From Anaerolineae bacterium (lineage in GTDB: Bacteria > Chloroflexota > Anaerolineae > JAADDB01), in contig WFQT01000412.1 in NCBI GenBank assembly GCA_015486895.1, positions 1-44,565 of the forward strand: a stretch of DNA of 44,565 nt. The letters are read 5' to 3'. Under the pieces are notes generated by a model. It was not told where the DNA came from and made no database searches. It saw nothing but the letters and a program-made list of their open reading frames with translations. A program made the translations under genes and the position numbers. Below are positions 1,714 through 44,428 of this stretch, piece after piece (within the stretch, counting starts at the first letter, position 1; each line of letters opens with the position of its first letter).

Positions 1714-1717
1714 GACA

Positions 1718-3811: not shown

Positions 3812-3870
3812 TCACTGCTAAGCTGACAAAGATTGACTGCCTACAGTATAGCACCACGCCCAGCAATGTG

Positions 3871-5030: not shown

Positions 5031-5036
5031 GAAGAA

Positions 5037-10883: not shown

Positions 10884-11249
10884 ATTCTCCCCCCTATTGC
10901 GGCTACTTTGTCTTCTGGATAACACTAGTAAGATCGGTTCCCTGTGCATGGCGCAGGCCGATCTTGAGTGCGGTGGGGACAATGCGAGAGGGATTATCGA
11001 GGAGGCGGATAGGTGGTGGGCGATAGCTGATAGCTGATGGCTGATGGCTGGTGGCAGGGACCCGGCGGCGATCTGTCGAACAAGCTCGCGCGTGCCATCG
11101 TCCGACATGCCATCTACAACCAAGACCTCCATGCGATCAGCAGGGTAGTCCTGAGCCAGTACCGCGCTCAAGCTGCGCTCGATGTACGCGGCCTCGTTAC
11201 GGATGGGCATGATGATGGTGACGAAGGGATGGTCATACTTTGAACCCAT
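10884..11249 (-). pseudogene. Duplicated 5' fragment of the ExoA-like GT2 gene, frame-broken
   Basis: Residues FVTIIMPIRNEAAYIERSLSAVLAQDYPADRMEVLVVDGMSDDGTRELVRQI differ at 3 of 52 positions from 9005-10108. DNA homology runs about 10940-11249 against 9790-10108. The frame is lost in the heptamer tract. Confidence 0.8.
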
Positions 11250-28139: not shown

Positions 28140-28157
28140 GATCTTTCCTCCTAGATC

Positions 28158-28931
28158 TCAGACTGGATAACGGCCGGGGGTGCGGCTTTCCTCTAACGGC
28201 AAGCCGCTTTCCAGACGTCCTAAGGCCTCTTCAATAGCTGGAATATCCTCAGGGTAATCCAATTCGAAGAGCGGATCATCCACGACAAAAGGAATGGCAC
28301 GATCACCCCACATGGAATTCTTTTCCAGGACGGCACGCGGCCGAACGACGTCTACGTAACCATTCTGCCAATAGACCAACGGTAATTGCTGACGCGGCAA
28401 TGACTGACAATCAGGTATCCCTTCGATACGTAGCAATGGTTCCAAGTAGCCTTCTGACGTAATCCGCCACATCTTGTAAGGCGTTTGCAATGCCAGGCTG
28501 ACCGACCGCACGGCATCAGCTTCGGGATGCATAGCCAATAGCTCAATCGCCCGCTCAATCAACTCCACCCGGCGTACTGGCTGGGTGGGGCGCAAGTGAA
28601 CGACTAAATCGGGCACGTAGCTTTCATGGTCCCGCAGCCAGGTCAGAGCATGGCTGAAAACGTCGATGTCGGGCGATAGGTCCTGGGCGTATTCAGCCGG
28701 GCGCATGAAAGGCACCTCCGCTCCCCACTGCCGGGCCACCTCAGCAATCTCCTCGTCGTCAGTGGAGACAATCACGCGGTCAATGCGCTCCGAAGCCTGA
28801 GCCTGTAAGATGGAATAAGCAATCAGCGGCTTGCCAGCAATGGGTAAGATGTTCTTGCGCAGAATGCCCTTGGACCCGCCGCGAGCGGGGATAAGAGCAA
28901 GGACAGAAAAAAGCTTGAACTTGTTATTCAC
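28158..28931 (-). CDS. Acylneuraminate (CMP-ulosonic acid) cytidylyltransferase family
   Basis: ALIPARGGSKGILRKN..IAGKPLIAYSI...VIVSTDDEEIA...HLRPTQP. Confidence 0.85.
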   Translation of the reverse strand: MNNKFKLFSVLALIPARGGSKGILRKNILPIAGKPLIAYSILQAQASERIDRVIVSTDDEEIAEVARQWGAEVPFMRPAEYAQDLSPDIDVFSHALTWLRDHESYVPDLVVHLRPTQPVRRVELIERAIELLAMHPEADAVRSVSLALQTPYKMWRITSEGYLEPLLRIEGIPDCQSLPRQQLPLVYWQNGYVDVVRPRAVLEKNSMWGDRAIPFVVDDPLFELDYPEDIPAIEEALGRLESGLPLEESRTPGRYPV

Positions 28932-28933: not shown

Positions 28934-29786
28934 TTACGTACCTCGAAAACTCGTCACGAACTCCTCAATGCTATAGATCTGCGGAAACTGTTCGAGTGGC
29001 AACTTGCTCCGACTGCAAATGCAATGCTTGTAACTTATCTGATGCACCATAAAGCCGTACTCTTTCAACAGTAACTCCGCCAATTCCGAGAGAGAACTGT
29101 CAACCTGCCCGAGTTTCCTTCCGTGAACTTCCAGAAGTAAGACCAGTCGTGGATTCTTGGGTACCAGCCTTTCCATGCCTTTCAGAACCTCGACCTCGTA
29201 TCCTTCGCAGTCCACCTTAATTGCATCAACCCGATCTAGCTCATCATCCAGACGGATCACAGGCACTTCTGCTGTCCCCCCCCCCGATCTTCCTGCCAGG
29301 TTGGGCAATGCTTCCGGTCAGCATTCCGCGCGGTATTATTGCCTTTCCAGGAACCGAACCGACGACTGCACATTTAGCCACGACATTTGTGAGATGATTA
29401 GCCTGTACACTCTTCTCCAAAAGGTCAAAATAATGCGGAACGGCCTCATAAGCAAATACTCTTCCTTCATTCCCTACCAGCGACGCCATTTCTATCGTGT
29501 AGTCACCCACATGGGCGCCTACATCACAGCAAAACCACCCCGGTTCAAGAAGAGGAAGAAAAACTCGGCGCACTGGCATTTCCGTTCCCTCACGTAACCG
29601 CTTCCGCATTCCAGGGCCATCCGCAAGGCGCATCCAGAGCTTGTAGGGACCAGTTATCTCATTGTAGGAAACCGTATACTCTCTGGGGCGATTATAAAAA
29701 GCGCGATAATACCACTCTTTAGCCTTCCGCATCCTATAACCACCGAAAAGCCTCTGGCGAAAACCTCTCACATAATGCCTCAACAT
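28934..29786 (-). pseudogene. FkbM-family methyltransferase split by a frameshift in a G10 (C10 on plus strand) tract
   Basis: ORF 29244-29786 has CDVGAHVGDYTIEMA...VFAYEAVP. ORF 28934-29308 has VIRLDDEL..VDAIKVDCEGYEVEVLKG. Both read through 29276-29285 in different frames. G9 or G12 would join them into about 283 aa. Confidence 0.8.
29276..29285. repeat. Homopolymeric C10/G10 tract
   Basis: Read directly: gctgt cccccccccc gatc. Confidence 0.95.
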
Positions 29787-29837: not shown

Positions 29838-30893
29838 TTACTCGCCTGCTATCTCCACAGCATGCCCCGACCGGAGCGAAGCCTCGGCCGCCAGCGAGAT
29901 TTTCAGGCTGCGAACTCCTTCGCGCAGATCCACCAGTGGTTGTTCCTCGCCGCGCAAGCAAGCCAGAAAATGCTCAAGTTCGTCCATGAACATCCGATTA
30001 CGGTCGAACCCTTCGAATCGCTGGATTTGCACGATGCGTGTAGCCCGTTCGTAGAATGCGGTCTGGTTGGCGTAATAGTCGTAGCGCACTTTGCCCGCAT
30101 CGCCAATGACCTCGCATACCCGCTGGGGCGGCCGTTGCAGGTAATCCAGGTGAACATGCACTGGCAAGGGGCGACCATCGTATTCACACTGCAAGAGTAC
30201 GCTCACCGAGTCCTCCACATCAACTTCCAATTCGCTCAGGTGTCCACCCACCGCAAACACTCGCCTGGGCATCCCAAACAGCCACAGGACGTAATCAATC
30301 TCGTGCGTCTGGATGTGCAAGCACCCACCTCCCAAATCCCGCCGGGCAGGGTGGGTTTTTCGGTAATCTTCGTAGGGATGCCAATCGGGCAAATACTCAC
30401 CATTCACGATGTGGGCGGCAACCAGTCGCCCCAGACGTCCCTCGTCAATCAGCGATTTGACCCATCGTAAACCCGGATGAAAGCGGAACTGGTAGGCCAC
30501 AAACGCCACCAGTCCCTTGTGTTCCACGAGTTCGACCAGTTCATCAACGCCCTCCAACGAATGAGAAAGGGGCTTCTCGATGAAGAGATGACAACCCGCT
30601 CGTGCCGCAGCCAGGGCGACCGGCAGGTGCAGGGCGTTGGGATTGGTCACAAAGACAGCATCGGGCTGTTCTGACAGCGCGTCCTCCAGATTGCTAAAGG
30701 AACGGATGTTGTATGTCGTTTCCAGGTCGGTCCCCGGTCTCACTGTCATATCCGGGTTGAGCACCGGGCTCTGGCCCCGGCTGCGATAGGCCAGGATTTC
30801 CACATTGTCACCCAACAGCGCCCGCAGGTTGCGTACGTGGCGCTGGCCGATGGAACCAAGGCCAGCAAAGAGCACCTTGAGATGATACTTCAT
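29838..30893 (-). CDS. Gfo/Idh/MocA-family oxidoreductase
   Basis: N-terminal Rossmann FAGLGSIGQRH, and the EKP motif (CHLFIEKPL). Confidence 0.8.
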   Translation of the reverse strand: MKYHLKVLFAGLGSIGQRHVRNLRALLGDNVEILAYRSRGQSPVLNPDMTVRPGTDLETTYNIRSFSNLEDALSEQPDAVFVTNPNALHLPVALAAARAGCHLFIEKPLSHSLEGVDELVELVEHKGLVAFVAYQFRFHPGLRWVKSLIDEGRLGRLVAAHIVNGEYLPDWHPYEDYRKTHPARRDLGGGCLHIQTHEIDYVLWLFGMPRRVFAVGGHLSELEVDVEDSVSVLLQCEYDGRPLPVHVHLDYLQRPPQRVCEVIGDAGKVRYDYYANQTAFYERATRIVQIQRFEGFDRNRMFMDELEHFLACLRGEEQPLVDLREGVRSLKISLAAEASLRSGHAVEIAGE

Positions 30894-31639
30894 AAATTTT
30901 CTCCGCTTTTGGGAAGCCCAGGGGCTCCTGCGCCGTTCTTTCGCCTATCCAAAAGCCAAGCTGCCAGCTCCAGATCAAAGTAAGTATCTATGTCTATCGA
31001 GTCAGCAGGATCCATCATGTACGGCACCACTTGCGAACCGTAGAAAGTCTCTTGCTCCACAATCACGTCTGCCCGAGTGACCAACACGGCCGGGCCATTG
31101 CGTGCATACAGAACAGGAACTTCCTGCCGCCTATAGCGGTCGAAAGGCACAGACACCTGCCAGAAATCTTCAAGACATCCATCCACAAGACGCATGACGG
31201 AGTACGGACTGTAACGATGCGGCACTTGCACAACACTGACTACGGTCTCAGCACCACTCCGCAGCAACAGGTCTACAGCCTCATCAATATGCTGCGCCCG
31301 GCGTAACGGCGAGGTGGGTTGTAGTAAGACCAGTACGTCCGCCTGCCACCCCTCGTGCTCAATTAGCCAGCGGATGGCATGTTGGGCTACAGCCAGGCTG
31401 GGTGTGTCGTCACGCGCCAGTTCACTCGGTCGCACGAATGGTACTTCCACGCCACAGTCACGCCCCACTTCAGCGATGACCTCGTCGTCCGTGGAGAGGA
31501 TAACGCGAGTCAAATACTGGCTTTGCAAAGCCGCCTCGCATGTATAAGCCAGGAGCGGCCGTCCAGCCAACCTAGCGATATTTTTGTGCGGGATACTTTT
31601 CGATCCCCCTCGCGCAGGGATCAAGCCGAGAATTTTCAT
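30890..31639 (-). CDS. neuA: Acylneuraminate cytidylyltransferase (second copy)
   Basis: MKILGLIPARGGSKSIPHKN...GRPLLAYT...ILSTDDEVIA...LLQPTSPLR. The start is set at ATG 31637-31639 (TGATG overlap with neuC). An alternative GTG lies at 31669. Confidence 0.8.
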   Translation of the reverse strand: MKILGLIPARGGSKSIPHKNIARLAGRPLLAYTCEAALQSQYLTRVILSTDDEVIAEVGRDCGVEVPFVRPSELARDDTPSLAVAQHAIRWLIEHEGWQADVLVLLQPTSPLRRAQHIDEAVDLLLRSGAETVVSVVQVPHRYSPYSVMRLVDGCLEDFWQVSVPFDRYRRQEVPVLYARNGPAVLVTRADVIVEQETFYGSQVVPYMMDPADSIDIDTYFDLELAAWLLDRRKNGAGAPGLPKSGENL

Positions 31640-32808
31640 CAATACGTCATCCGTTTCTGCACTTCCCACGAACAGGTAGATAAAATGTCGGCGATGCGCT
31701 CGCCAGCATGACCATCTCCATAGATATGCTCAGAGGGATAACGTCCGTGATCTAATTGCCGTTGGATGGCCTCGATAATCTGTTCGCGATCGTAATCCAC
31801 GTCGATGACGTTGCTGCCCCGCTCCCGTCCCATCTGGCGTGTACCGATGTTTACAGCAGGTAGGCCCAGGAATGCTCCCTCACGAATGGCGGAACTGGAA
31901 TTGCCTACCATGCAAGCACTGCGCATCATCAAGCGAATGAAAGTTTCAACAGGAAAGTTTTTGTAGAATCGAATATAGTCGTGACGATAGTGCTCACGGA
32001 ACTTACGCATCCCTCTGGCGATATCTTCGGCACCAGCATCTACATTAGGCCAAAGCATGACGGTCGGCACCTGCAATTCATGGAGAGCCATCAAGGTTTC
32101 GGTGATCTGATGCTCCCCTTGACCATATTCGGTGGTAACGGGGTATTGAGCCACAAGCAAAAATGGTTCATCCAAATTGATATGACCTCCGACACCCTCA
32201 TACTCCAACCAGGCTCGTTCCGGCAGCCGGCCATCATTGCTAACGACCTCCGCTATCAAATCAATACGAGGGCAACCTACCACGTGTACCGTAGCCGGAT
32301 CTTCGCCCATGCGGATAATTCGCTCGGCGGCAGACCGGTTGGCAGGAAAATGAATATGAGCCAGTTTGGTTACCGCATGACGCACACTCTCGTCAATAGT
32401 CCCGGTAACCTCCCCACCCATTGTGTGCGCCAAAGGGATATTCATGTAAACAGCCGCAATGGCAGTGGCCATTGTCTCAAAGCGGTCTCCCACAGTTAGC
32501 ACTACATCCGGCTTGAGTCTATCGAAAATTGTGGGTAACTCCAAAAGCCCCAGGCCTGTTGATTTGGCCATCGTCGCAGGTGTCTCGCCCTCGATGATCA
32601 TATGCACTCTGGCATCTGGCTTGAAGCCATCAGCCTCGATGACTTCTACAACCGAGCCAAACCGGTCCAGCAATGCAGAAGCCCCAACAACCAACTGTAG
32701 CTCCAGATCAGGGTGAGCCTGAATGGCGCGCATAGCGCTCTTGATGCTTCCATAATTTGCCCGACTGCCGACTACAACACATACTTTGCGCACAAACCCC
32801 TCCGTCAC
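31639..32808 (-). CDS. neuC: UDP-N-acetylglucosamine 2-epimerase (hydrolysing), NeuC type
   Basis: VVVGSRANYG...GDRFE..A.A.AA....PLAHTMGGEVTGTIDESVRHA.TKLAH.HF.. Confidence 0.85.
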   Translation of the reverse strand: MTEGFVRKVCVVVGSRANYGSIKSAMRAIQAHPDLELQLVVGASALLDRFGSVVEVIEADGFKPDARVHMIIEGETPATMAKSTGLGLLELPTIFDRLKPDVVLTVGDRFETMATAIAAVYMNIPLAHTMGGEVTGTIDESVRHAVTKLAHIHFPANRSAAERIIRMGEDPATVHVVGCPRIDLIAEVVSNDGRLPERAWLEYEGVGGHINLDEPFLLVAQYPVTTEYGQGEHQITETLMALHELQVPTVMLWPNVDAGAEDIARGMRKFREHYRHDYIRFYKNFPVETFIRLMMRSACMVGNSSSAIREGAFLGLPAVNIGTRQMGRERGSNVIDVDYDREQIIEAIQRQLDHGRYPSEHIYGDGHAGERIADILSTCSWEVQKRMTY

Positions 32809-32838: not shown

Positions 32839-33858
32839 TCACATATCAAAGAGATCTTCTTCCCGGATAAGACTATCCTTTGGTATCCTTCGTTTGGTGC
32901 GCTTGCCTAACACATCTTTGATTCGGCTGGCGGGTATCCCCGTTCCTGGTTTTTTGATTCCTATCATGTCGGCGGTAACCACAGCGCCTTGAGGAATTTC
33001 CACCAACGAGACGACACTCTTCTCAAAAATCTTCTTCATCTCCTTCAACCTAAGGGCATTGGCATCCTTATCCACACGTGAGGACAACATCGTCTCGATA
33101 GCACGGATCCCTTGAACAAGTTCTTCGAATTCTTTCGGTTCCAATGAGTGGCGTGCATCACTACCGTACATCAAACGACTGAACGTCAGGTGCTTCTCGA
33201 TAACAGACGCACCCAAAACGACCGCCGCCAGCGAGGCATAAGGCGTCAGCGTATGGTCAGAAAGCCCCACAGGCAGTTTGTACCGTCCTCGCATCTCCAG
33301 CATCACGTTTAACCCTGCTTCCTCATACGGGCAAGGGTACTCTGATGTACATTGCAGCACCGTCAGTCGGTCGTGGTAACGCAGTATGGTGTTGACAGCC
33401 TCGTCCAGTTCGGCCCATGAGCTCATGCCTGATGAGAGCAACACTGGTTTACCTGTCTGGGCAATCACCTCCAAAAGGGGCAGGTTACTCACTTCACCTG
33501 ATGGTATCTTGTAGCGGCCTACACCCACATCCTCTAACAGTTCGACAGCTTCAATCGAGAAGGGCGACGAGAGGAATTCAACACCATGGGCCTCACAATG
33601 CGCTTTCAGAGTCTTCCATTGATCTCGATTAAAAGCCGTACGCTCGAAATAATCATAACGCGGCTCACCTTTGAAATAAGGTGGCATGGGAGCATCACGC
33701 AACGTTTCCGCGGCAGCGATATGGGTTTGGAATTTGACAGCGTCTACGCCACAGCTTGCAGCCACTTCGATTAGCTTTTTGGCATTACCAAAGCTGCCGT
33801 CATGGACGGAGCCAACCTCGGCAACGACAGAAACTTGATTCAAGTTCTCGTCATTCAT
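32839..33858 (-). CDS. neuB: N-acetylneuraminate-type synthase with SAF domain
   Basis: VVAEVGSVHDGS...GVDAVKFQTH...KIPSGEV...LLSSGMS...LQCTSEYP...GLSDHT...EKHLT, plus a C-terminal SAF-like IPQGAVVTADMIGIKKPGTGIP. Confidence 0.85.
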   Translation of the reverse strand: MNDENLNQVSVVAEVGSVHDGSFGNAKKLIEVAASCGVDAVKFQTHIAAAETLRDAPMPPYFKGEPRYDYFERTAFNRDQWKTLKAHCEAHGVEFLSSPFSIEAVELLEDVGVGRYKIPSGEVSNLPLLEVIAQTGKPVLLSSGMSSWAELDEAVNTILRYHDRLTVLQCTSEYPCPYEEAGLNVMLEMRGRYKLPVGLSDHTLTPYASLAAVVLGASVIEKHLTFSRLMYGSDARHSLEPKEFEELVQGIRAIETMLSSRVDKDANALRLKEMKKIFEKSVVSLVEIPQGAVVTADMIGIKKPGTGIPASRIKDVLGKRTKRRIPKDSLIREEDLFDM

Positions 33859-34922
33859 AGGCCACCTTCGATCTGCTCAATCAACTGCATCGTCTTGACA
33901 GCATCATTGAGATCAGAGGCTGGATACGGCAGTGTTTCCCCCAAAGCCAGTGCCTTGACAAAGGTCTGGTCCTGAACATAGAGTCCAGGCTTATATTGTC
34001 GATCAATCGGATCCACAGGTATAGAAAACCTCCTCTTTCCCCGGTAAATTTCACCGCTTGTATTGCCAGCGAGCGAGATTTCAACGCGAACGCCATCCCC
34101 GTATAACTTGATACTCCAGCTACCACCTGCGTGCCAGTGCGCGACAAAAGTACCCAGGCAGCCACTGCTCAAGCGCATGATCGCTGTAAAACTATCGCCA
34201 TTGCGTTCCTCCCAAGAATTCTTGAAGCCGCAGAATCCGTCGACTTCACCTCCTATACAGCGGAAGAGGTCAATACAATGGATGCTGTTTCCAACAAACC
34301 ACAGATCATAGAGTCGCGGATCAAAGCGTCCCTCCGTCCGAATCCGGCGAATCGCCTCCGGTGCTTCTATAACAATTCCGATCAACGGACCTTCTTGTAA
34401 AATGGCAGACAACCCTTGATGGAGTACAGACAAAAAGCGCCGGTTGACACCAACCATATTGAGGCAATGATTCTCGTTAGCCAAGGTGGCCAAACGAGCG
34501 GTCTTGTCTGAGGTAAAACCAGCAGGTTTCTCAATCAAACAGGGAATGCGCCGTGTCAAGCATTCGGCGGCAACCGACACAGTCTCAAAATGGCTGACCG
34601 CCACAATAACGCCATCTGGTCGTGTAACGTCCAACATAATGCGGTAATCATCAAATGTCTGAGCGACGCGATACTGCTGCGCCAACGCGGTAATATCGGA
34701 GTTACCGCGATTACATATGCCAACCAGATCGACGTTTGCCATCGCCGATAGCACTTCCAAATGTCGCCGTGCATGTCTGCCAGCGCCAGCAACAGCAATG
34801 CGTACCTGAGGCAATCGTTCACTAAGCGAGCGGTATTGAGCGAGAATGGCTTCCGTATGATCTCGTACATTCAAGAAGCGACGCACAAACCGTCGGCCCT
34901 GACCAAGATACTTTCTAATCAC
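33855..34922 (-). CDS. Gfo/Idh/MocA-family oxidoreductase
   Basis: IAVAGAGRHARRH...CLIEKP. GTGA overlap with the upstream gene. Confidence 0.75.
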   Translation of the reverse strand: MIRKYLGQGRRFVRRFLNVRDHTEAILAQYRSLSERLPQVRIAVAGAGRHARRHLEVLSAMANVDLVGICNRGNSDITALAQQYRVAQTFDDYRIMLDVTRPDGVIVAVSHFETVSVAAECLTRRIPCLIEKPAGFTSDKTARLATLANENHCLNMVGVNRRFLSVLHQGLSAILQEGPLIGIVIEAPEAIRRIRTEGRFDPRLYDLWFVGNSIHCIDLFRCIGGEVDGFCGFKNSWEERNGDSFTAIMRLSSGCLGTFVAHWHAGGSWSIKLYGDGVRVEISLAGNTSGEIYRGKRRFSIPVDPIDRQYKPGLYVQDQTFVKALALGETLPYPASDLNDAVKTMQLIEQIEGGL

Positions 34923-36076
34923 GGGAAAGGCAACTCCAGTTCGGCATCTGCGCCCTGTAGCGGTAGGGAAACTTGCTCATGTTGACGTTCATCGGATAGA
35001 TGTATCGCCATCACCGCTTCCAACGCCGCCACACCTTCTTCCGCACCACAAGAGGGCACTCGGTCTGATAACATTTCAGTTGCAACTTTTGCAAACAAAC
35101 CTGCAGGCTTCATCTCATCTGAGAAGCGAAAAGTCTGACGGCTGAACACCGCATTGATCAAGTGCCACTCTCCTTGTCTCTCATCTACCTCGATACGGCC
35201 AGCAGTACCTCGCAAGACCAAGAACTTGCCTCTTCGGTTCAAGTCATCAGACACATCCAAATAACCACGTACACCATTTTCCAGGCCAATCAAGGCGTAA
35301 CCGCCAGGATCTTGAAATTGGGGGCCACGCTTGTTAGGCCTGTGTACTTTGTCCAGAAATCCGATAACCCATGCAATCCTGCTATCCGCCAGATAAGCGA
35401 TCAAATCCAGGAAATGAACCCCCACCATCGCCAGACCACCTGGCCCAGGTACCACGTACACCTGACGCAGCGTTCCTACATAACCGTGCTCAACACAACG
35501 CCTGATGGCAGCATAGTCATTAGACCAACGCCGACTATGATTGACAGCGATTTTGACTCCTCTCTCGCGGCACAAGTCAGCTAACTGACGTGCCGCGAGC
35601 ACCTGGTTGCCGATCGGCTTTTCCACAATCAACCGCTTCACACCTGCTTCGATAGCGAGATTGGCAATCTCTACGTGAGACGTCGTGTTGGTGGCTACGC
35701 AGATTAAATCTACTTCTTCAGCATGCAATAACTCGCGAGTATCTCTGTAGAATCTTGTTTTCGGCAAATCCACCTGTTGACGCAGTCTTATTATAGCGTC
35801 CGGGTTACGATCCGCCACAGCTACAATCTCGGCTTGGCGTATTCTCTGAAGTCCCAAACACTGATCACGTCCCATTGCGCCGGCGCCTATCACTGCGACA
35901 CGATACTGAGAACCTGAATCTTTCAATGAAATCACATCGGATGCTGCCTGCGACCGAACAATAGTTGCCAGTTTCCGCTTGTGCCTGATCTGTCTAGCGT
36001 GGAAAATCAACGTCCTGATTCTTTGCTTCACCTGACATCCTCGCCTTTGTTTTCGAACAAGTTGCCAACTGCACAT
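34919..36076 (-). CDS. Gfo/Idh/MocA-family oxidoreductase
   Basis: VAVIGAGAMGRDQ...RLIVEKP. The N-terminal roughly 55 aa are basic and low-complexity, so the true start is uncertain. Confidence 0.7.
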   Translation of the reverse strand: MCSWQLVRKQRRGCQVKQRIRTLIFHARQIRHKRKLATIVRSQAASDVISLKDSGSQYRVAVIGAGAMGRDQCLGLQRIRQAEIVAVADRNPDAIIRLRQQVDLPKTRFYRDTRELLHAEEVDLICVATNTTSHVEIANLAIEAGVKRLIVEKPIGNQVLAARQLADLCRERGVKIAVNHSRRWSNDYAAIRRCVEHGYVGTLRQVYVVPGPGGLAMVGVHFLDLIAYLADSRIAWVIGFLDKVHRPNKRGPQFQDPGGYALIGLENGVRGYLDVSDDLNRRGKFLVLRGTAGRIEVDERQGEWHLINAVFSRQTFRFSDEMKPAGLFAKVATEMLSDRVPSCGAEEGVAALEAVMAIHLSDERQHEQVSLPLQGADAELELPFP

Positions 36077-36080: not shown

Positions 36081-37382
36081 CTAAAAAACTTGAGTTGCTG
36101 AATGTTGGACAGCAATCTGCTCTAGCTCTGAAACAATGCGTCCGCAAACCTTGGCTGCATCCAGCTTCGTCTCGTACGTTTCACGAGCACGGCGTCCTAA
36201 TCTACGTCGCAGATCTGTATCGCGCAAGGCCCGCACAACCTGTCTGGCCAGATCAGCGCCATTGTCAGCTAACAAGGCATTATCCTCGTGAACGAGCTCC
36301 GGCATCCCCAGGGCATTTGACGTGTGGGAAACAACACAGCAGCCGTAAGAGAACCCTTCGGCCACGCGGGTTCGGAAACCCAATGCGTCTGGGGTGGGTA
36401 CAAGCAGCACGTCGCTTCCAAGGAATTCCGCTGGCGCATCTTCAACAAAGCCACGTATCCGCACAGAAGGACGGGTCAACTTATCCTTAACGGCAGGAAG
36501 CAGTTCACCCGTACCGACAATATCTAATTGAAAACCCTCCACCCCTAGTTCCTGCTCAAGTATAGGTAAAATCTCAAATGCCAACAGATTAAGGGCAGGA
36601 CGGTTAATTAAGCTATCTAAACGCCCAATGAACAAAATAACGGGCTTCTTCTTGTCTAGCTGATAAGCCTGGCGCATTTCCTGCCACCGCGAACCGATGT
36701 GATCCACAACAGGGTTCGGCAGGTAAAAACATTGCTTGACACCTTGCTGGCGTAGCCAGGTTGCATGGTGAGCAGCATGTTCAACAACCCGCTCCGACGT
36801 GCGAATAACCTCAAGTTCTATCCGCTCCAACGATCGATCAGACAACTGCACAAGCACGGTATTCACCCACGCGCGCCAACCGTTCGTCTGAGTGGATCGC
36901 CGCCTCACAGCATTGTGCAAATGGTTCAAATTCACCAATGCGGTTAGCCTGGGTGGTGCTGAAGGCAGCTCCGCCACAACCGCTGCAGCCGGAAAGTCGT
37001 AAACATAAAGTGCATCCGGCCGTTCCATCGCAATGACGTCTGCGAGGAAGGGTGCAACGGCAACTTGGGGGAAATAGTCGCTCGCGCGCGGTAGGAAAGC
37101 CCGCCGAAATGCCAGCGCGTATTTCTCAAGCCGAGACATAGGCCGTTTTCTCGATAGTGGTGGCGCTTGCTCATCCAGATCGTACACACGAATCCCCAAT
37201 TGTTCAAGAAACGTCCGTGCCTCATCGCGATAAAGGTCATAACGCCACCGGTGAAACGTACAGACAGAAACGTCATGTCCCCGGTCCAATAGCGCCTTCA
37301 CGACAGCCCATGCTATCACCGGATTACCCGAGCTGGCTTTGGGGTATGGTAAGATGCCTGAAACAACTACAAGTGCTCGCAT
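36081..37382 (-). CDS. GT4-family glycosyltransferase
   Basis: GT-B layout with C-terminal ..LLVPTPDALGFRTRVAEGFSYGCCVVSHTSNALGMPELV.. Confidence 0.7.
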   Translation of the reverse strand: MRALVVVSGILPYPKASSGNPVIAWAVVKALLDRGHDVSVCTFHRWRYDLYRDEARTFLEQLGIRVYDLDEQAPPLSRKRPMSRLEKYALAFRRAFLPRASDYFPQVAVAPFLADVIAMERPDALYVYDFPAAAVVAELPSAPPRLTALVNLNHLHNAVRRRSTQTNGWRAWVNTVLVQLSDRSLERIELEVIRTSERVVEHAAHHATWLRQQGVKQCFYLPNPVVDHIGSRWQEMRQAYQLDKKKPVILFIGRLDSLINRPALNLLAFEILPILEQELGVEGFQLDIVGTGELLPAVKDKLTRPSVRIRGFVEDAPAEFLGSDVLLVPTPDALGFRTRVAEGFSYGCCVVSHTSNALGMPELVHEDNALLADNGADLARQVVRALRDTDLRRRLGRRARETYETKLDAAKVCGRIVSELEQIAVQHSATQVF

Positions 37383-37428
37383 ATTCAGATTCTCACGTTG
37401 ATATTTTCTCGGTCAATATTTGCCGATT

Positions 37429-39093
37429 CTAGAGGAGAGCTGTTTCCAATACTATTGATTCCTGCTCCATAATTTTGATGAGATGATAGAGGTGGATTTC
37501 CTGCATAGGATATTCATACCTTGATTCAATAACACCCAACTTTGCACGAAGACCTAAAATGCGCTGACCTAAATCGTCATGTTCTAATTGATCGAAGAAA
37601 GGCGATCGAAACCAACGCTGGTAATTCGAAGGGTCTTTTATATTCCATTTTATACGAGTAGGGTCAAATTCAGAAAATCGATGCCGTAATGGAGCCTTGA
37701 TATCGAAATAATCGCGCCTCTTTATGTGGCTATTTACATGAAGCGCAAGAGGTGAGATATAGGGAAGCATCCCCTTTATCGAGAAGTACCTGGCAGAAAT
37801 GACCCACGCCATTGTTTCCCCGGATGTACAATAATTCACGTAGCGTTGGAGAACAAACTTCTTATATGGAAAAGCTTGCATACAATCAAATTCCGGCCCA
37901 AAATACCGCGTAAATCTATCTAAATATTTAAATCTCTCTCTTTCAAATGAATGAATCATCACAAATCTAGTCAAATATTTACCGATAGTTCGTCGAACTC
38001 TGGTTCTAAAACTAACAGGCGATGATTGAACAAGATGAGCAATGTCATCTATTACACGAGTGCTATGAGAGCCTTTCCTCAGAAAAAATATTTGATGAAG
38101 ACCCCAATCCCACATATTATCAGCACTTTGTCCACTTAGTAGCACTTGCGCATCCGAGTGACTCGCTAACGAATAACAAAATATAGCAAAGAAGGCACTA
38201 AACGGATTATAGTCAACAAAGTGCCGATAATAACGATTGAAACCATCCACATCTGAAAAATCTAACGTAACATTGGGATATTTCTTTTTTAATTGCTGCG
38301 CCGCTTTTGCGCCCGCCACGCGTTCTCGTTTTCGCTGAAGGTCAGCATAGGGCTCTTTGTAGTCCACGGTAAGCAGTTGGCTTACTTTTTCATTATACAA
38401 AGATGCCAAGCCATGACTGTCAGGCCCACCAGAATACGCCACATCAAAGGAATTATAATGGTCTTTATAACAAGCAACTGCCTTTAAGTAGTCATCTATA
38501 TCATACTGTGGGGGGTTAGCGGAATCTATCGTATGAAATCCAGGAAACGCCTGCATTATCAGAGTGATCCCCTCTGGACGAAATGCATAAAGTGCATATG
38601 GTTTAAGATGCCAGAGGTTCTGAAAAAGCGTCTTGGGATATTGACAGGAGCCGCGCCGAAGAAAATATTCTAAGTTATCTCGAGAGAGCTCCACCTGATC
38701 TAGCTTTTTCAGGATCGCTTGCCAGGATGTATCAATTACAATTCCTCTTGAATTCCGCCCACAATAGACAGGAACGTCAATCTCACCAGAAGTATAGATA
38801 TATGACACTACCCCACCTTGTTCAACTATCACTATATATGAGCCGATTAATTCGGTCAGCCGGTGAACTTCCTCTACCAAATCCTGTGAAGTGCAGAACT
38901 TCCTAATTACATCAATCATTTGGGCATCTATAGGTACAAAAACACCAAGGCTTCTATAATCCGCCATGAAATCGATGCTTCCAAGGATAGTAACTGCAAT
39001 AGAGTCGCATACAGTCTTCAGTAATGGAGTAGAACAAGATGTTATAACACCCTCATTGTTTATTTGGACATGAAACTTCGATTCATTCGCCAT
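37429..39093 (-). CDS. Asparagine-synthetase-like PP-loop ATP-pyrophosphatase lacking the N-terminal Cys nucleophile
   Basis: PP-loop FDVAYSGGPDSHGL. A degenerate N-terminal Ntn-like region (..GSYIVIVEQGGVVSYIYTSGEIDVPVYCG..). The protein starts MANESK, not MCG. Own SD (GAGGAGTAGGAAGCA) before the ATG. The DNA is markedly AT-rich. Confidence 0.5.
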   Translation of the reverse strand: MANESKFHVQINNEGVITSCSTPLLKTVCDSIAVTILGSIDFMADYRSLGVFVPIDAQMIDVIRKFCTSQDLVEEVHRLTELIGSYIVIVEQGGVVSYIYTSGEIDVPVYCGRNSRGIVIDTSWQAILKKLDQVELSRDNLEYFLRRGSCQYPKTLFQNLWHLKPYALYAFRPEGITLIMQAFPGFHTIDSANPPQYDIDDYLKAVACYKDHYNSFDVAYSGGPDSHGLASLYNEKVSQLLTVDYKEPYADLQRKRERVAGAKAAQQLKKKYPNVTLDFSDVDGFNRYYRHFVDYNPFSAFFAIFCYSLASHSDAQVLLSGQSADNMWDWGLHQIFFLRKGSHSTRVIDDIAHLVQSSPVSFRTRVRRTIGKYLTRFVMIHSFERERFKYLDRFTRYFGPEFDCMQAFPYKKFVLQRYVNYCTSGETMAWVISARYFSIKGMLPYISPLALHVNSHIKRRDYFDIKAPLRHRFSEFDPTRIKWNIKDPSNYQRWFRSPFFDQLEHDDLGQRILGLRAKLGVIESRYEYPMQEIHLYHLIKIMEQESIVLETALL

Positions 39094-39176
39094 TGCTTCC
39101 TACTCCTCGAACATCGTTTGATTTGTATCAGTTCAGGATTGAACATAGAATCTGATGAACACTCTCGGAATACCTC

Positions 39177-39533
39177 TCAATAGAATAATTCTCGCGCGCC
39201 ACACGCCAGCCAGGGATCGCCCTTACGGATGACGGCCACACTACCACAAGTGCTACCGCCGTCTATGTCTATAACGATGTATTCCAAGTTTGGGTACCCT
39301 TGCAACAACACCGAGCGGATAGTTTCCTCGATGAACTGCGCCTGATTGTACGACGGCGTGACGATGCTCACCCGCAGCCGGGGGCGGCCACCTGCCCTGA
39401 GCAGAGCCGAAGGGTCGGGCATCGTAACCGGCAACTGCGGGCTCTCCCCCGTCCACGGCCAGCCGGTTTTGCCCGGCGGCGGGGGTGGGAGTTCATTCAG
39501 AGTTGGACAGCGCATGGCCCCTTTCCTTTCCAA
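39177..39533 (-). pseudogene. 5' fragment of a GT2 glycosyltransferase gene
   Basis: [36 protein letters not shown](ID)[17 protein letters not shown], then an abrupt end. The probable original start is M at 39422. A 6-nt tandem duplication (gtctat x2) lies inside. Confidence 0.7.
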
Positions 39534-39786
39534 GTTCCCACTCTTCCAGGATCTCTTGATACCAATGCAAATACTTGTTCACTTGCTGCTCCAGGTTGAA
39601 ACGCATACGAGCAGCCTTGGCCGCCTGAGCGCCCATTTCCCTACGCGGTTTATCGTCAGAAAGCATTTGCTCAATCCGAGAAGCCATCGCTTCCGCATTC
39701 CCCGGTGGTACCAGGAACCCAGTCACTCCATGTTCGACCTGCTCTGGGATGCCTCCAACCGCTGTTGCTACCACTGGCGTGCGCAA
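39493..39786 (-). pseudogene. 3' fragment of a GT4 glycosyltransferase gene
   Basis: ..[40 protein letters not shown].. is the EX7E C-terminal lobe only. It begins 15 nt after the hldA-like stop, with no N-terminal lobe. Confidence 0.75.
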
Positions 39787-39801: not shown

Positions 39802-40797
39802 CTACACGGACGAAGAGTCAATGAACTCACCGTTCATCAGTTCTTCGCCGGTGACTGTAGCCGTTCCCACCTTTCCCACTACAATACCGGCAGCCTGATT
39901 CGCCAAGCGCGCGGCCTGTTCCAAAGTGGCGCCCGATGCCAAAGCCATCGCTAGTGTGCTGACGACAGTATCGCCAGCTCCCGTAACATCGAAAACGTTT
40001 CGGGCTACAGCCGGGATGTCTATAGTAGTCCGACCCCCGTCCAGGAACAAGGACATGCCTTGCGCTCCACGGGTGATTAGTAGTGCGCTTCCCTCAAGAA
40101 TGACGCACAGTCGTCGGCCAACTTCCAGCAGGTCGGCCTCGCTATGGATTTCGCGGTTCAATGCTTGCTCTGCTTCATGTACGTTGGGCGTGACCACGGT
40201 AGCACCGCGGTACTTAGCATAGTCCGTGCCTTTAGGATCCACAATCATCGGCTTACCAGCGTCCTTCGCCAACTGGATGAAGCGCTCAGCAAGCCTGGAC
40301 GAAATAACCCCCTTAGCATAATCAGAGAGAACACAGGCATCGGCTTCGGCTATCCGTCTCTCGGCCCATTGAAGCAGCATGTCCTCTAGATCAGCCCGCA
40401 AAGGCACCCGCTGCTCAGAGTCCACGCGAACGACGTGTTGGTTGTGGGCAACTATACGGGTTTTAGTTGTGGTGGAACGCTGGTCATCAACAACCAAGCC
40501 GTCGAACTCCACGCCGATTTGCGTAAGTGCGTTGCGAAGTTCTTCGGCCTGATGATCCCGGCCAACCACGCCACCCAGCATCGCTCGACCACCTAGGCCG
40601 ACCACATTGGCGGCTGTGTTAGCTGCTCCACCTGGCAGATAAACCCGGCGGCGGATCTCGACCACAGGTACCGGGGCCTCGGGCGAGATGCGCCGCACTT
40701 CACCCCAGATGTACTCATCCAACATCACATCACCAACGATGAGAACACGCTTGCCGGGGAAGGCAGTTACTATATCGCGTAACGCTTTTTCTCTCAT
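39802..40797 (-). CDS. hldA: D-glycero-beta-D-manno-heptose-7-phosphate kinase (RfaE domain I, PfkB family), stand-alone
   Basis: VLIVGDVMLDEYIWGEVRRISPEAPVPVV...GGAANTAANV...DVTGAGDTV. The start is set at ATG 40795-40797 (ATGA overlap with gmhB). Confidence 0.8.
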   Translation of the reverse strand: MREKALRDIVTAFPGKRVLIVGDVMLDEYIWGEVRRISPEAPVPVVEIRRRVYLPGGAANTAANVVGLGGRAMLGGVVGRDHQAEELRNALTQIGVEFDGLVVDDQRSTTTKTRIVAHNQHVVRVDSEQRVPLRADLEDMLLQWAERRIAEADACVLSDYAKGVISSRLAERFIQLAKDAGKPMIVDPKGTDYAKYRGATVVTPNVHEAEQALNREIHSEADLLEVGRRLCVILEGSALLITRGAQGMSLFLDGGRTTIDIPAVARNVFDVTGAGDTVVSTLAMALASGATLEQAARLANQAAGIVVGKVGTATVTGEELMNGEFIDSSSV

Positions 40798-41363
40798 CCT
40801 CGCGCTCCAGAGCGGCCTAAAATGCACTGTACAACCTCCGGCCAGCTGCCGGCTACTTCATCAGGCATCGGGTCGAGTTCATCAAGCACTGGCTTGGTCG
40901 AGAGCAGAACCGTCTGACAACCAGCCCGTTTGCCTGCTTCAACGTCGCTGGCCTTGTCTCCAACCATAAAGGATCGAGTCAGGTCAAGATCCAATTCCTT
41001 AGCTGCCTGTAGGAGCATCGCCGGTGAGGGCTTGCGGCAACGGTTCTGTTCCCCAGGCGCATGAGGGCAATAGTAGACTGCATCGAGCTGTACTCCGTAT
41101 CGCTCCAACTGCGAAAGAAATTCCTGGTGAACTTGCTCCGCCTGCTCTGCTGTCACCAAGCCCCTTCCTATCCCCGACTGATTGCTGACCAGAACCAACA
41201 GGAATCCTTGTTCCTTTAGCTTCTTCAACGCCTGCCCCGCGCCAGGAAGTAACTGAACCTGTCGGGGGTCTCGGGGATAACCCACATCGTAAATGAGCGT
41301 GCCATCTCGATCAAGAAACACAGCCCGCCTCTTCTTTTTCGTCCATTCCATCTTCCCTTTCAC
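40794..41363 (-). CDS. gmhB: D,D-heptose 1,7-bisphosphate phosphatase (HAD)
   Basis: AVFLDRDGTLI...VSNQSGIGRG...YYCPH.P......CRKP.P.ML...MVGDK.SD. The more likely start is ATG 41349-41351. Confidence 0.8.
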   Translation of the reverse strand: MKGKMEWTKKKRRAVFLDRDGTLIYDVGYPRDPRQVQLLPGAGQALKKLKEQGFLLVLVSNQSGIGRGLVTAEQAEQVHQEFLSQLERYGVQLDAVYYCPHAPGEQNRCRKPSPAMLLQAAKELDLDLTRSFMVGDKASDVEAGKRAGCQTVLLSTKPVLDELDPMPDEVAGSWPEVVQCILGRSGARG

Positions 41364-42457
41364 TAACTCATTTCTCTTAACCGTCGGATAAGTTCAGAGG
41401 TTGAGGCGAACGGCACTAAGGGAAGAAACTTTATCCGCCCCCCGTATGATCTGACCACGCTCGCCTCAGGGATTGGCTTCCCATCGGGTGGAGCATAATC
41501 GGCACCCTTGCAATGAATATCAGGTTTCAAACGGGAGAGCGCAACCTCCGGGGTAAGTTCATCGAAAACAATCACGTAGTCCACACTTTCCAAACTCGCC
41601 AGGACTTCGACGCGCTCATGAACAGGGACAATGGGACGTCCAGGGCCCTTCAGTTGACGGACCGATTCGTCGCTGTCTACCCCCACCACCAGGACATCTC
41701 CCAGAGCTTTGGCCATCCGGAGGCTTCGCACGTGTCCAACATGAAGTAAGTCAAAGCAACCGTTTGTCCAGACGACGGTCTTTCTCTCAGCCCGCCACTG
41801 CTCACGCAAGGCTAAAAGCGCATCCCACTCCACGACCTTAACGTTGGAAGACCGGACGTTGCCACGTGCGCTTTCGGCAAAAAGCAGCCTCTCAACGATC
41901 TCGCAAAACAGGTGCCCAATAGTGATATGACATTCCTGAATCCGGGCTGTATTAGTCGAGGGGACCACGATCGAGACATCTACGATTCCAGCCAGCCGTC
42001 CCCCGTCGCCCCCTGCCAGGCCAACGCTGGTGAGACCCTGCGCGTTCGCGGCCCTTACCCCTTCCAATACGTTTGGCGAATTACCACTCGTGCTGATAGC
42101 TATCGCAACATCCCCAGGCTTACCAAGTGCCTCTACCTGACGGGCAAAGACTTGTTCAAAGCCGTAATCATTGGCGATAGCGGTAAGGATCGATGTATCC
42201 GTAGTCAACGCAATGGCGGGTAGAGGAATACGCTCCCTTATGAAGCGCCCAACAAATTCAGCAGCGATGTGCTGAGCATCAGCAGCACTGCCGCCGTTAC
42301 CGAAGAGCAGAATTTTTCCCCCGCGCCGAAAGCAACCCCAGATTGCCTCTGTGGCCTGGACGATGGCACCCGTGTACCTCTCAATCGCCTCAAGGCACAG
42401 TTGGGAGTTTTCACGCAAGGAGCGGATCACTTGTTCTCGAATGACATCAGTCTGCAT
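41363..42457 (-). CDS. Fusion protein: GmhA-type phosphoheptose isomerase (N) + HldC-type heptose-1-phosphate adenylyltransferase (C)
   Basis: N-terminal half: KILLFGNGGSAADAQHIAAEFVGRF...ISTSGNSPNV...ARIQECHITIGHLFCE. C-terminal half: VVWTNGCFDLLHVGHVRSL..AKALGDVLVVGVDSDESV. Confidence 0.85.
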   Translation of the reverse strand: MQTDVIREQVIRSLRENSQLCLEAIERYTGAIVQATEAIWGCFRRGGKILLFGNGGSAADAQHIAAEFVGRFIRERIPLPAIALTTDTSILTAIANDYGFEQVFARQVEALGKPGDVAIAISTSGNSPNVLEGVRAANAQGLTSVGLAGGDGGRLAGIVDVSIVVPSTNTARIQECHITIGHLFCEIVERLLFAESARGNVRSSNVKVVEWDALLALREQWRAERKTVVWTNGCFDLLHVGHVRSLRMAKALGDVLVVGVDSDESVRQLKGPGRPIVPVHERVEVLASLESVDYVIVFDELTPEVALSRLKPDIHCKGADYAPPDGKPIPEASVVRSYGGRIKFLPLVPFASTSELIRRLREMS

Positions 42458-43724
42458 GTTTCGATACCCACCTCTGGAGCACAGGGCGGCTTTGCGAGAG
42501 CAGCGGCATGATAGCCTCTTTCACCTGTCCAACCGTAATGCTAAGGATGCAATGGGCTTGGGTAGCATTACACGCCTTGGAACAAGGGGCAATAGCTTTT
42601 TCTGGCTGAAGTACAATGTGCGGAACCCCCCAGGGTCCAAACCGGACGGGTGAGTTTGGGTGCGACGGTGAACCATCCAGCGGATGACACGAGATTTCGA
42701 CCACAGGGATCCCTGCAGCAGCCGCCAAATGCATCGGTCCTGCGTCATTGCCTACATAGAGGTGACAGCGTTTCAGCAAGGCGCTGGTCTGCCGCAGCGT
42801 TGTCTGAGCTACTGCATTGATCACGGTATCGCCGATTTTTTGCTGGAGTTCTCGGCCCAGCCGTTCTTCGCCCCGCCCACCCACCACCACCAAATGGGCC
42901 GCATACTGACTCTTTAGCCAGGTTCCCAGTTCGATAAAGTTACCTAACGGCCACATCCGTTTTGGAACACCTGCACCTGGCGCGAACGCAATCAGCAAGT
43001 TGTCGGGACCGACCCCGTGAGATTTCAGCATTTGCTCTGTGAAAGTCTCGTCCTCTTCACTCAGCCAAAGTTCTAACCGCTCGTCCTGTACCTGCCCACC
43101 CAGGAAGCGAATCACGTCCAGGTTGTGCTCTACCTCATGCTTCACCGTACTATCATTGAGCACATGAGTAAACAGGCGGTCGTATCCGCCATTGAGTCGC
43201 CGTTTGTGGCTAATGACGCCCTCCGAATACCCAACCCGCCAGGGCGCGCCGCTGAAGTAGACCAGGAAGGTGCCATGATAGTAGTGGTCAGCGTCCCAGC
43301 GGGGGAGGACAGCAAGATCGAATTTTCGCTTCCAGAGATGTTGGGCCGCCAATTTGATTGCTCCCACGTGCCGCCGCAATTCGCCAGAACGTCCCTTTTC
43401 CCCCCAATCATAAGTCAGCACCTCGTTCACATAAGGGCAGAGTTCCACCAGATTGTAAACCTGTGGCTTCACCACCAGCGTAACCCACGCATTCGGAAGA
43501 TTTCGCCGCAATTCCCGCAAGAATGGCGTGGTTAGCACCACATCGCCAATTTCATCCAACCGCACCACCAGCACCCGTTTGACCTGTGACAAATCAATCT
43601 TCTGCCCCTTGCGGCGCATGCCCGTGAGCCAGAAGAAAGGCTCGCCAACTACCCGAGCGGCCCGGGGCGTTGCAAGCCAGGACAATAGCCAGTCGATTGG
43701 AACTTTAATAAGGCTCAAGATCAT
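42447..43724 (-). CDS. GT9-family glycosyltransferase (heptosyltransferase-like)
   Basis: VLVVRLDEIGDVVLTTPFLRELR...FAPGAGVPKRMWP...YVGNDAGPMHLAAAAGIPVVEI. Confidence 0.85.
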   Translation of the reverse strand: MILSLIKVPIDWLLSWLATPRAARVVGEPFFWLTGMRRKGQKIDLSQVKRVLVVRLDEIGDVVLTTPFLRELRRNLPNAWVTLVVKPQVYNLVELCPYVNEVLTYDWGEKGRSGELRRHVGAIKLAAQHLWKRKFDLAVLPRWDADHYYHGTFLVYFSGAPWRVGYSEGVISHKRRLNGGYDRLFTHVLNDSTVKHEVEHNLDVIRFLGGQVQDERLELWLSEEDETFTEQMLKSHGVGPDNLLIAFAPGAGVPKRMWPLGNFIELGTWLKSQYAAHLVVVGGRGEERLGRELQQKIGDTVINAVAQTTLRQTSALLKRCHLYVGNDAGPMHLAAAAGIPVVEISCHPLDGSPSHPNSPVRFGPWGVPHIVLQPEKAIAPCSKACNATQAHCILSITVGQVKEAIMPLLSQSRPVLQRWVSKHAD

Positions 43725-44428
43725 CCACCATTAGTGGGATAATATATCACCCGTTCCCATTCAATGGCAGCCTGTTCAACCGCCTCCCGCAGGAATGCTT
43801 CATCGGCTTCCGAGAACACATTCCGCCAATCTCCTATGATCCCTTTGCGCGGCAAAATAGATGGCGCGTCATTCAAACCTATTGGCCGGGTTCGTAACCT
43901 CAACCGCAATCCGAGAAAACTTGCCACCTCCTTCAAGACGGGCTTGTATTCCTTATACAATTCCTCGTAGCGCACCACTAACACATTGGGATCAGAGTCG
44001 GCTGCCTTTAGCCAGCCGCTGACATGAGAAGCCCACCGCTCCGCCACATTCGAAAAATCGCCATGTAATGAATAGCTATACTTCAGGAAAGGTGATACAG
44101 GCCTCCGGAGGAATTCCGAAAAGGACTTGCAGCGGTGATCTGGCACTTGAGAATTGTATTTATAATATTCGTCTCTATTCAGGTAGTGGAACCAAGAAGT
44201 CATGGTGTCTCTTGGGTCACGAAGCACATAAATCACTTTGGCCTTTCTATATCTGGCCTCAAACAAATCCCGATCACAGTGGCTCTTGATCACTGCCGCC
44301 TGTCTATCCGCTAAATCCCATGCGCTATTAAAAGCATCAATGTGTGCAAACCTGTTAGTAGGATCATCATAAGGGCCGAACCATTCGCCAATATTATGCC
44401 AACCTTGTCTAATATCTTTGGCTACAAG
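43721..44428 (-). CDS. Sulfotransferase-domain protein; the 5' part is probably frame-shifted and runs to the window edge
   Basis: 3'-PB-like VIYVLRDPRDTMTSWFHY. The frame stays open upstream of the track start to a TAA at 44429-44431. A different frame is open from 44432 almost to the window end (..GFSTFLVPMVFSFILQLYAEPALKQMRWPEFDKTLDP). Confidence 0.55.
   Translation of the reverse strand, partial: LVAKDIRQGWHNIGEWFGPYDDPTNRFAHIDAFNSAWDLADRQAAVIKSHCDRDLFEARYRKAKVIYVLRDPRDTMTSWFHYLNRDEYYKYNSQVPDHRCKSFSEFLRRPVSPFLKYSYSLHGDFSNVAERWASHVSGWLKAADSDPNVLVVRYEELYKEYKPVLKEVASFLGLRLRLRTRPIGLNDAPSILPRKGIIGDWRNVFSEADEAFLREAVEQAAIEWERVIYYPTNGG

Follow-up and report, generated by a model that had tools for sequence, protein, structure and literature searches.

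A cysteine-less asparagine synthetase-like protein of a very rare clade is linked to nonulosonic-acid synthase genes in surface-glycan loci

Characterized enzymes of the asparagine synthetase B (AsnB) superfamily convert a carboxylate to an acyl-AMP and then form an amide, a lactam or, in a second round, a nitrile (PMC13060819). Some of them act on sugars: the AsnB-family proteins WbpS, WbqG and PGN_1234 convert sugar uronic acids to uronamides, as indicated by mutants (PMC7468200), and an AsnB homolog was proposed earlier to participate in the modification of pseudaminic acid in Tannerella (PMC6120980). Here we analyze another relative, encoded on contig WFQT01000412.1 of an Anaerolineae bacterium (assembly GCA_015486895.1), the whole 44,565 nucleotides of which are referred to as the window. 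Its gene (positions 37429–39093, minus strand) was singled out by an original prediction made from the DNA sequence alone, and was assessed here by its open reading frame (ORF), family alignments, a structural model, Foldseek and hhalign. Judged by sequence and model, the product of 554 amino acids (aa) is an AsnB-superfamily member of a very rare, unnamed clade. What is new here is that this clade, which lacks the glutaminase cysteine, is tied to a nonulosonic-acid synthase (NeuB).

A scan of the 554-aa protein against NCBIfam found no match at E <= 0.01, the score on TIGR01536 being 13.4 bits (cut-off, 267), and neither the single protein nor a seven-sequence profile found a match in sequence searches of the PDB. 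Relationship to AsnB emerges at the level of profiles and structure. A 20-sequence family profile aligned by hhalign with a small profile of canonical AsnB proteins at 97.6% probability (E 1.5e-11), and an AlphaFold2 model made with a 25-sequence alignment reached a predicted local distance difference test score (pLDDT) of 91.1 and a predicted template-modeling (TM) score of 0.92. This model was used throughout, the one made with a seven-sequence alignment (pLDDT 52) being unusable. In full-length Foldseek comparisons it matched CarA (1q19, 2.5e-13), beta-lactam synthetase (beta-LS; 1mc1, 3e-12), TsnB9 (7ylz, 5e-12), E. coli AsnB (1ct9, 2.5e-10, TM about 0.5) and also human ASNS. The structures 1ct9, 8sue, 1q19, 1mc1 and 7ylz were matched at E values of 1e-8 to 2.5e-13 with a probability of 1.00, and the model has the two-domain AsnB fold: residues ~1–200 form a domain of the N-terminal nucleophile (Ntn) type without its nucleophile, and residues ~215–554 form a PP-loop synthetase domain.

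Relatives of this protein are scarce. An index of 5.8 billion proteins contained six, and a profile search of that index returned the same seven proteins and nothing further. Exhaustive HMMER searching of 1.84 billion cluster representatives gave 29 matches at E <= 1e-3, none of which is named and the weakest of which is a true AsnB starting with MCG. No relative was found when two family motifs were searched against 185,579 species-representative genomes, nor in plasmid and phage collections. As traits of the clade, all of them seen in the window, we propose a length of ~530–575 aa, a NeuB gene no more than five genes away, and the motifs PYALY, FPGxH, YSGGxDS, GQxAD, LPYxSPLxLHVxSHxKR and DxKxPxR. 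One locus, L009, encodes tandem Cys-less paralogs (1216–2958 and 3001–4674) immediately behind a NeuC gene; the two share 42% identity, and each is nearer to a different clade member. They may form a hetero-oligomer or catalyze two successive steps.

Family members share with E. coli AsnB (1ct9) and human ASNS the two-domain fold and the SGGxDS and GxxxD motifs, but are only about 10–13% identical to them, lack the first ~40 residues (including Cys1) and the glutamine-binding residues, and do not conserve E348. Residue 1 of the family aligns with AsnB residue ~40–48, and the AsnB strand that bears the Cys nucleophile is missing. Cys2 is absent from 24 of 24 family sequences, in which Met is followed by a residue other than Cys, while the true AsnB (P0033) alone starts with MCG. 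Because the ORF starts (MANESK) at the first start codon past an in-frame stop, no upstream extension could add a Met-Cys. The AsnB glutamine-binding residues R49, N74, E76 and D98 have no counterparts in the alignment, where the corresponding columns hold L37, S39 and a variable position; of the AsnB N-G-E only the Gly is retained, as G38. With both the nucleophile strand and the glutamine-binding residues lost, the N-terminal domain should be unable to make ammonia from glutamine, and the alignments indicate that the glutaminase site is dead in every member.

The ATP site presents a different picture. Residues S221, G223, S226, G321, D325, P444 and K466 do not vary among 25 sequences, and D225 hardly does. 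The SGGPDS motif (221–226) aligns with SGGLDS of AsnB, and GQSADN with GEGSDE (AsnB 235–240 and 347–351), GQSAD being residues 321–325; the second Mg-binding Asp is present. Given this conservation of the PP-loop, the Mg-Asp motif and K466, the ATP-pyrophosphatase machinery looks intact, and the C-terminal PP-loop domain appears to retain all that is needed to convert ATP to AMP and pyrophosphate. The N-terminal domain is also unusually conserved for a vestigial one: of the 46 core positions that are invariant or nearly so in the alignment, 15 fall within residues 1–200 (including PYALY and FPGxH). This suggests reuse for binding, and the Ntn-type domain probably now serves to bind the substrate.

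The best structural matches, beta-LS (1jgt, 1mc1) and CarA (1q19), with E values of 2.5e-13 to 1e-11, resemble the family in having the two-domain AsnB fold and a Cys-less, glutaminase-dead N-domain, and their PP-loop domain adenylates a carboxylate. Identity to them is 10–12%, however, and the family has an extra helical segment at about residues 330–440. Their Tyr-Glu dyad (Y348/E382 in beta-LS, Y345/E380 in CarA) is not conserved, the Tyr position being the variable Gln322; E426, always acidic (E or D in 13 core members), is a possible match to the dyad Glu in an alignment of low confidence. Whereas beta-LS and CarA are encoded in antibiotic (clavam/carbapenem) clusters, all core-clade contexts are glycan loci.

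Those contexts were read from core-clade members on contigs with readable flanks, namely the window and nine distinct loci (L001/L002, L003–L005, L007, L008, L010, L012, L013, L015 and L016). In the window and in 9/9 of the further loci a NeuB gene lies no more than five genes away, and all are surface-glycan loci. NeuB is the next gene in L001/L002, L003–L005, L007, L012, L013 and L015, with gaps of 13–51 nt in L001, L003 and L012, and is within five genes in L008, L010, L016 and the window. The window NeuB gene (32839–33858, minus strand; NeuB and SAF domains) is of the subtype that recurs beside the family elsewhere: its product is 66–80% identical to NeuB of eight of the nine loci, that of L016 being different (36%). 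Across the NeuB loci the AsnB-like proteins themselves share only 22–65% identity with that of the window (P0001), and the G+C content of the loci varies between 35 and 64%.

In the window, NeuB forms a module with a NeuC-type hydrolyzing UDP-GlcNAc 2-epimerase (31639–32808, minus strand; 86% identical to NeuC of L008) and a CMP-nonulosonate cytidylyltransferase, NeuA (30890–31669, minus strand). NeuC follows in the window, L001, L008 and L013, and in L009 comes ahead of the family genes; the window and L001 also have a cytidylyltransferase gene that follows. Upstream, a glycosyltransferase family 2 (GT2) gene is found in L001, L003 and L012, and the window has a GT2 remnant orthologous to the GT2 of L001. 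The exporter genes wzm-wzt lie directly upstream in L010 and L016, as does a C-terminal fragment of Wzt in L007. The Wzt proteins of L007, L010 and L016 possess the carbohydrate-binding C-terminal domain by which the cap at the non-reducing end is recognized in O-polysaccharides exported by ATP-binding cassette (ABC) transporters; L014 is grouped with these three loci.

WbpS, WbqG and PGN_1234 (the TIGR03108 eps_aminotran_1 class) are comparable in belonging to the AsnB superfamily, in being encoded in surface-glycan loci and in making an amide from a sugar carboxylate with ATP. Unlike the family described here, they keep the N-terminal Cys and the GATase domain, use glutamine and act on hexuronic acids; the family has no such Cys and is linked to NeuB instead of uronic-acid genes. 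Seven members scanned with TIGR03108 gave a best E of 2.4e-4, far below the 816.9-bit cut-off, and lack a full-length match and a functional GATase.

The composition of the gene sets it apart from the rest of the window. It is the single intact ORF of a low-G+C block (37383–39190, ~41% G+C, no strand assigned) that further comprises a 46-nt downstream spacer and an 83-nt upstream spacer with a Shine-Dalgarno-like GAGGAG at -15 to -10 from the ATG and AGGAAG at -8 to -3. The ORF has a G+C content of 40.8%, and of 49.9, 35.9 and 36.8% at the first, second and third codon positions (GC1, GC2 and GC3); it is the minimum among all 1665-bp stretches of the window (mean 52.6%, standard deviation 3.7, z = -3.2). 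Neighboring genes have 50–60% G+C and a GC3 of 49–70%, and the whole window 52.5%. In 100-bp steps the G+C borders are abrupt, at ~37400 and ~39190. We rejected the possibility of a pseudogene, as the ORF is intact and identical in independent assemblies, and its catalytic motifs are invariant. Promoter- or terminator-like sites around the block do not exceed the number expected from shuffled sequence.

The upstream border of the block lies beside two glycosyltransferase remnants. The first (39189–39515, minus strand) is the N-terminal ~109 codons of a GT2 gene, running from an ATG at 39515 to a breakpoint that blastp and tblastn place at 39189; it matches Pfam PF00535 over residues 56–104 only and is 64% identical to residues 1–99 of the intact 317-aa GT2 of L001, which sits two genes upstream of the family member there. 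The G+C step at 39189/39190 is the exact base at which homology of the GT2 remnant stops. The second remnant (39541–39780, minus strand), the C-terminal ~80 codons of a glycosyltransferase family 4 (GT4) gene, covers positions 116–171 of 172 of the Pfam Glycos_transf_1 profile, is 35% identical to residues 355–434 of the L001 GT4 and abuts the stop of a heptose kinase gene. The C-terminal half of the GT2 was not found beyond the block or anywhere in the window, so that the junction is best described as the scar of a replacement or deletion and not as a simple insertion that interrupted an intact gene.

These features fit a gene that recombination brought in or reshuffled, a usual occurrence among the variable genes of glycan loci. 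The competing account, that low G+C is a trait of the family or of variable glycan-locus genes and that the gene is an old resident rather than a recent foreign insertion, is the less probable of the two, although parts of the evidence speak for it. Family genes are 3–14 points below their flanks in G+C in 12 of 14 locus records (12 distinct loci), so that the low G+C is partly a family trait. This includes L008, among the closest homologs with readable context (64% identity over residues 1–354), where the gene has 41.9% against 55.6% and stands beside NeuB and NeuC that are 80% and 86% identical to those of the window. Moreover, the block is flanked by no direct or inverted repeats beyond short chance-level ones and by no tRNA or mobile-element genes. 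Against a long-standing residence are a GC3 of 37% compared with 49–70% in the neighbors, which amino-acid composition cannot explain, and the fact that the G+C step falls on the very base where GT2 homology ends, beside two remnants. Relative to NeuB/NeuC, L008 also carries the gene on a different side than the window does, arguing for independent placement. The case for recombination is built on the low GC3, on this step and on the different placement in L008.

Much of what the original prediction had said of the block stands. An AT-rich, single-gene stretch of ~1.8 kb is indeed present, its hand counts (35% G+C at 38041–38100, 65% at 40561–40620) were exact, and the 554-aa gene has its own Shine-Dalgarno sequence (GAGGAG before the ATG), the MANESK start and the SGGPDS motif. 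A truncated GT2 does lie upstream, but its length, put at about 80 codons, is ~109 by homology to L001. The proposed insertion holds as a recombination scar and fails as a simple insertion into an intact gene, the GT2 C-terminal half being absent and the second (GT4) remnant having been missed. Horizontal acquisition is plausible in view of the atypical composition and the scar, but is weakened by the partly family-wide low G+C.

Other parts of the window also bear marks of rearrangement. An ORF at 10110–11249 (minus strand) fuses ~50 N-terminal GT2 residues to a class I methyltransferase domain; it is a second window GT2 gene truncated past its first motif and points to a mosaic, much-recombined locus. 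Near the left end are an AbiEii/AbiEi toxin-antitoxin pair (910–2557) followed by two small ORFs (2957–3768), tandem repeats with periods of 9, 14, 44 and 52 (3865–4359) and of 48 (5160–5253), and a 5'-truncated Polysacc_synt_2 dehydratase gene (4340–5083; profile positions 113–291 only). The stretch from 900 to 5300, part of which has 46–48% G+C, looks like a further insertion/deletion scar at the edge of the glycan locus.

What might such an enzyme do? AsnB, beta-LS, CarA and the lasso cyclases all activate a carboxylate as an acyl-AMP. The NeuB product is the only carboxylate metabolite common to all core contexts, and adenylation of its C1 carboxylate therefore ranks as most likely. We infer that the enzyme would adenylate a carboxylate, most plausibly C1 of the sialic-acid-like sugar that the neighboring NeuB/NeuC/NeuA genes produce, acting on the free sugar, the CMP-sugar or a lipid-linked glycan, and that the acyl-AMP would then react with nitrogen from a source other than glutamine, for example free ammonia, an amine or an amino acid. 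The resulting amide would take away the negative charge of the sugar. To this proposal, a NeuB-made sugar adenylated at its C1 carboxylate and amidated with non-glutamine nitrogen, we assign about even confidence. More tentatively, the nonulosonic-acid carboxylate could be neutralized either by C1 amidation (the donor being ammonia or an amino compound) or by closure of an intramolecular lactam, a modification for which we know of no enzyme in any organism. In the three loci where the family gene comes first after wzm-wzt and Wzt has a cap-binding domain, the modified sugar could be a chain-terminating cap read by Wzt.

The original prediction had described an AsnB-superfamily protein without the glutaminase Cys and with an intact PP-loop, which the alignments, Foldseek and hhalign bear out. 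It had suggested remote homology and structure prediction as a check, and the hhalign probability and the model, which matches CarA, beta-LS and AsnB, answer this in its favor; so do the neighborhoods of homologs, since the core-clade members with readable flanks are all in glycan loci. Of its proposed target, a uronic or ulosonic sugar carboxylate, the ulosonic half is favored by the NeuB/NeuC/NeuA partners, as the conserved partner is one NeuB subtype and not a uronic-acid pathway. Its view that such a chemistry had not been attributed to proteins of this kind was overstated and does not hold for the superfamily, given that WbpS, WbqG and PGN_1234 already make uronamides (PMC7468200).

Several observations weigh against this assignment of family and function. 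The window protein scores 16.9 bits on Pfam Asn_synthase (PF00733), below the gathering threshold of 21, which a few relatives do pass (P0003, P0009 and an L009 paralog). At the position of AsnB Glu348, where beta-LS and CarA have the Tyr of their dyad, the window protein has Gln322 and other members have Q, T, M, F or E, so that neither known catalytic arrangement is copied. K466 could not be assigned to AsnB K429 or K449, the global hhalign alignment of the C-terminal 200 residues being unreliable. Two of the most distant relatives, P0019 and P0024 (18–22% identity by alignment), are not beside NeuB: P0019 (L014, 1797–3440) is in a glycan-type locus with NeuB not in view, and P0024 (L100, 8539–10143) lies among rplM, rpsI, an argC-like gene, truA and mutL, a housekeeping setting. 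As they break the pattern, the NeuB linkage is a property of the core clade only, and this outer clade probably has a different role. Furthermore, a literature search turned up no bacterial nonulosonic acid naturally amidated at C1, nor a nonulosonic acid neutralized at its carboxylate, as C1 amide or lactam, in bacterial glycans. Sialyltransferases and CMP-synthetases normally require a free carboxylate, which makes the timing of amidation awkward.

A first alternative, which we consider improbable, is acetamidino formation, in which the N-acetyl carbonyl oxygen would be activated and replaced by ammonia, making the enzyme a functional analog of PseA, PtmG or WbpG. These enzymes also have a PP-loop, are encoded beside nonulosonic-acid genes and add nitrogen to a sugar; they differ in belonging to a separate PP-loop family, in acting on an amide carbonyl and in having no Ntn-like domain. 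Acetamidino and N-methyl-acetamidino nonulosonic acids are common, and methyltransferase genes are found near the family gene in L001, L014, L016 and the window (29244–29786), an arrangement resembling the amidotransferase and methyltransferase pair of the Campylobacter legionaminic-acid pathway. Other PP-loop enzymes (GMP synthetase, argininosuccinate synthetase and TilS) do adenylate amide or ureido oxygens. In the AsnB superfamily, however, every characterized enzyme activates carboxylates and none an amide carbonyl. The N-acetyl sugar amidotransferase model of the WbpG and PseA family (TIGR03573 of NCBIfam) was absent at E <= 10 from 7/7 members scanned, and membership in that family was rejected on this ground. 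An AsnB homolog has been proposed for Pse5Am formation in Tannerella forsythia (PMC6120980), a proposal that is itself an annotation-based guess.

Another carboxylate altogether is about as improbable a target: the enzyme might act on a uronic acid of the glycan, or it might activate an amino acid by adenylation and transfer it to an amino sugar (aminoacylation). The AsnB-type WbpS and WbqG set a precedent for the former (PMC7468200). For the latter, L003 and L012 encode FdtA and DegT, which make an amino sugar that might accept an acyl group. The recurrent upstream GT2, with its remnant in the window, counts in favor of another target as well. Opposed to both is the fact that NeuB is the sole partner conserved across the family loci, among whose annotated neighbors no UDP-sugar dehydrogenase was seen. 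In addition, the window already has a canonical, Cys-containing AsnB (13348–15282) for a WbpS-type task.

An intramolecular lactam synthetase is more doubtful still. Here the acyl-AMP would be attacked by an amine of the same molecule, for example the C5 amine of a de-N-acetylated sialic acid to give a 1,5-lactam; no enzyme that makes such lactams is known to us. The known Cys-less AsnB homologs (beta-LS, CarA and lasso cyclases) form intramolecular amides, CarA and beta-LS are the top structural matches, and deacetylase genes are close by in L001 (Polysacc_deac_1) and L010 (PIG-L). That top rank may merely reflect the shared degenerate N-domain, though, and the variable Gln322 at the AsnB Glu348 position speaks against a lactam-forming site, as does the finding of no deacetylase near the gene in the window or most other loci. 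Sialic acid 1,5-lactams themselves occur in nature (PMC7663150). Lasso-peptide and macrolactam cyclases of the McjC type (NF033561, NF033535) are likewise Cys-less AsnB homologs that form an amide with non-glutamine nitrogen, but their models match weakly (E 0.018–0.04 for NF033561) and no precursor peptide, leader peptidase (B protein) or other gene for a peptide made on the ribosome and then modified post-translationally was found in any locus, so that a lasso cyclase was rejected.

Among the other genes of the window, an intact GT4 glycosyltransferase gene (36081–37382, minus strand) lies directly downstream of the block gene; its G+C of 53% is host-like, and no similarity between it and the GT4 genes of L001, L008 or L016 could be detected. 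Between it and NeuB are two genes of the Gfo/Idh/MocA oxidoreductase family (33855–36076, minus strand). The canonical AsnB-family gene (13348–15282, minus strand) encodes 644 aa with an MCG start and GATase_7 and Asn_synthase domains; its product scores 582.8 bits on TIGR03108, the XrtA/PEP-CTERM amidotransferase model, and 491 bits on asn_synth_AEB. It is of the WbpS-like class that amidates uronic acids, and the locus thus has two very different AsnB relatives.

A second, distinct ulosonic-acid module occupies 25352–28931 (minus strand). It comprises a cytidylyltransferase (28158–28931), a NeuB without SAF domain (27267–28139) that shares just ~35% identity with the first one, a short-chain dehydrogenase and a protein (25352–26431) in which a KdsC/Kdn-9-P-type phosphatase is fused to a GmhA-type sedoheptulose-7-P isomerase; it may make a heptose-derived or Kdn-like sugar. 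The adjacent gene (23913–25355, minus strand) encodes 480 aa without a Pfam match and with a weak match to the BFO_1060 glycosyltransferase family (E 1.4e-11, below the cut-off), which is named after the Tannerella nonulosonic-acid transferase. Its product is a candidate transferase for either of the two ulosonic acids. On the other side of the block, 39802–43724 (minus strand) is a complete ADP- or GDP-heptose block with a GmhA-cytidylyltransferase-like fusion, a GmhB phosphatase, an RfaE-type kinase and a GT9 heptosyltransferase, followed by a sulfotransferase gene (43721–44293). The closest genome matches of the GmhA-HldE fusion protein are just 60% identical and are spread across metagenome-assembled genomes of Verrucomicrobia and Myxococcota.

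Bacterial glycans often owe their behavior in immune recognition, phage adsorption and motility to the nonulosonic acids (sialic, legionaminic and pseudaminic acids) at their tips. Small substituents account for much of the variety of these sugars, and many such substituents have no known enzyme. The family described here provides a compact candidate: one gene, an ATP-dependent amide-forming scaffold and a fixed NeuB partner. If the product were an ordinary amide made from free ammonia, this would be a modest extension of the WbpS precedent. If the proposal is true, a new substituent or a charge-neutral sialic acid would be added to bacterial glycobiology, and the reactions of the AsnB superfamily would come to include nine-carbon sugars in addition to amino acids, beta-lactams and peptides.

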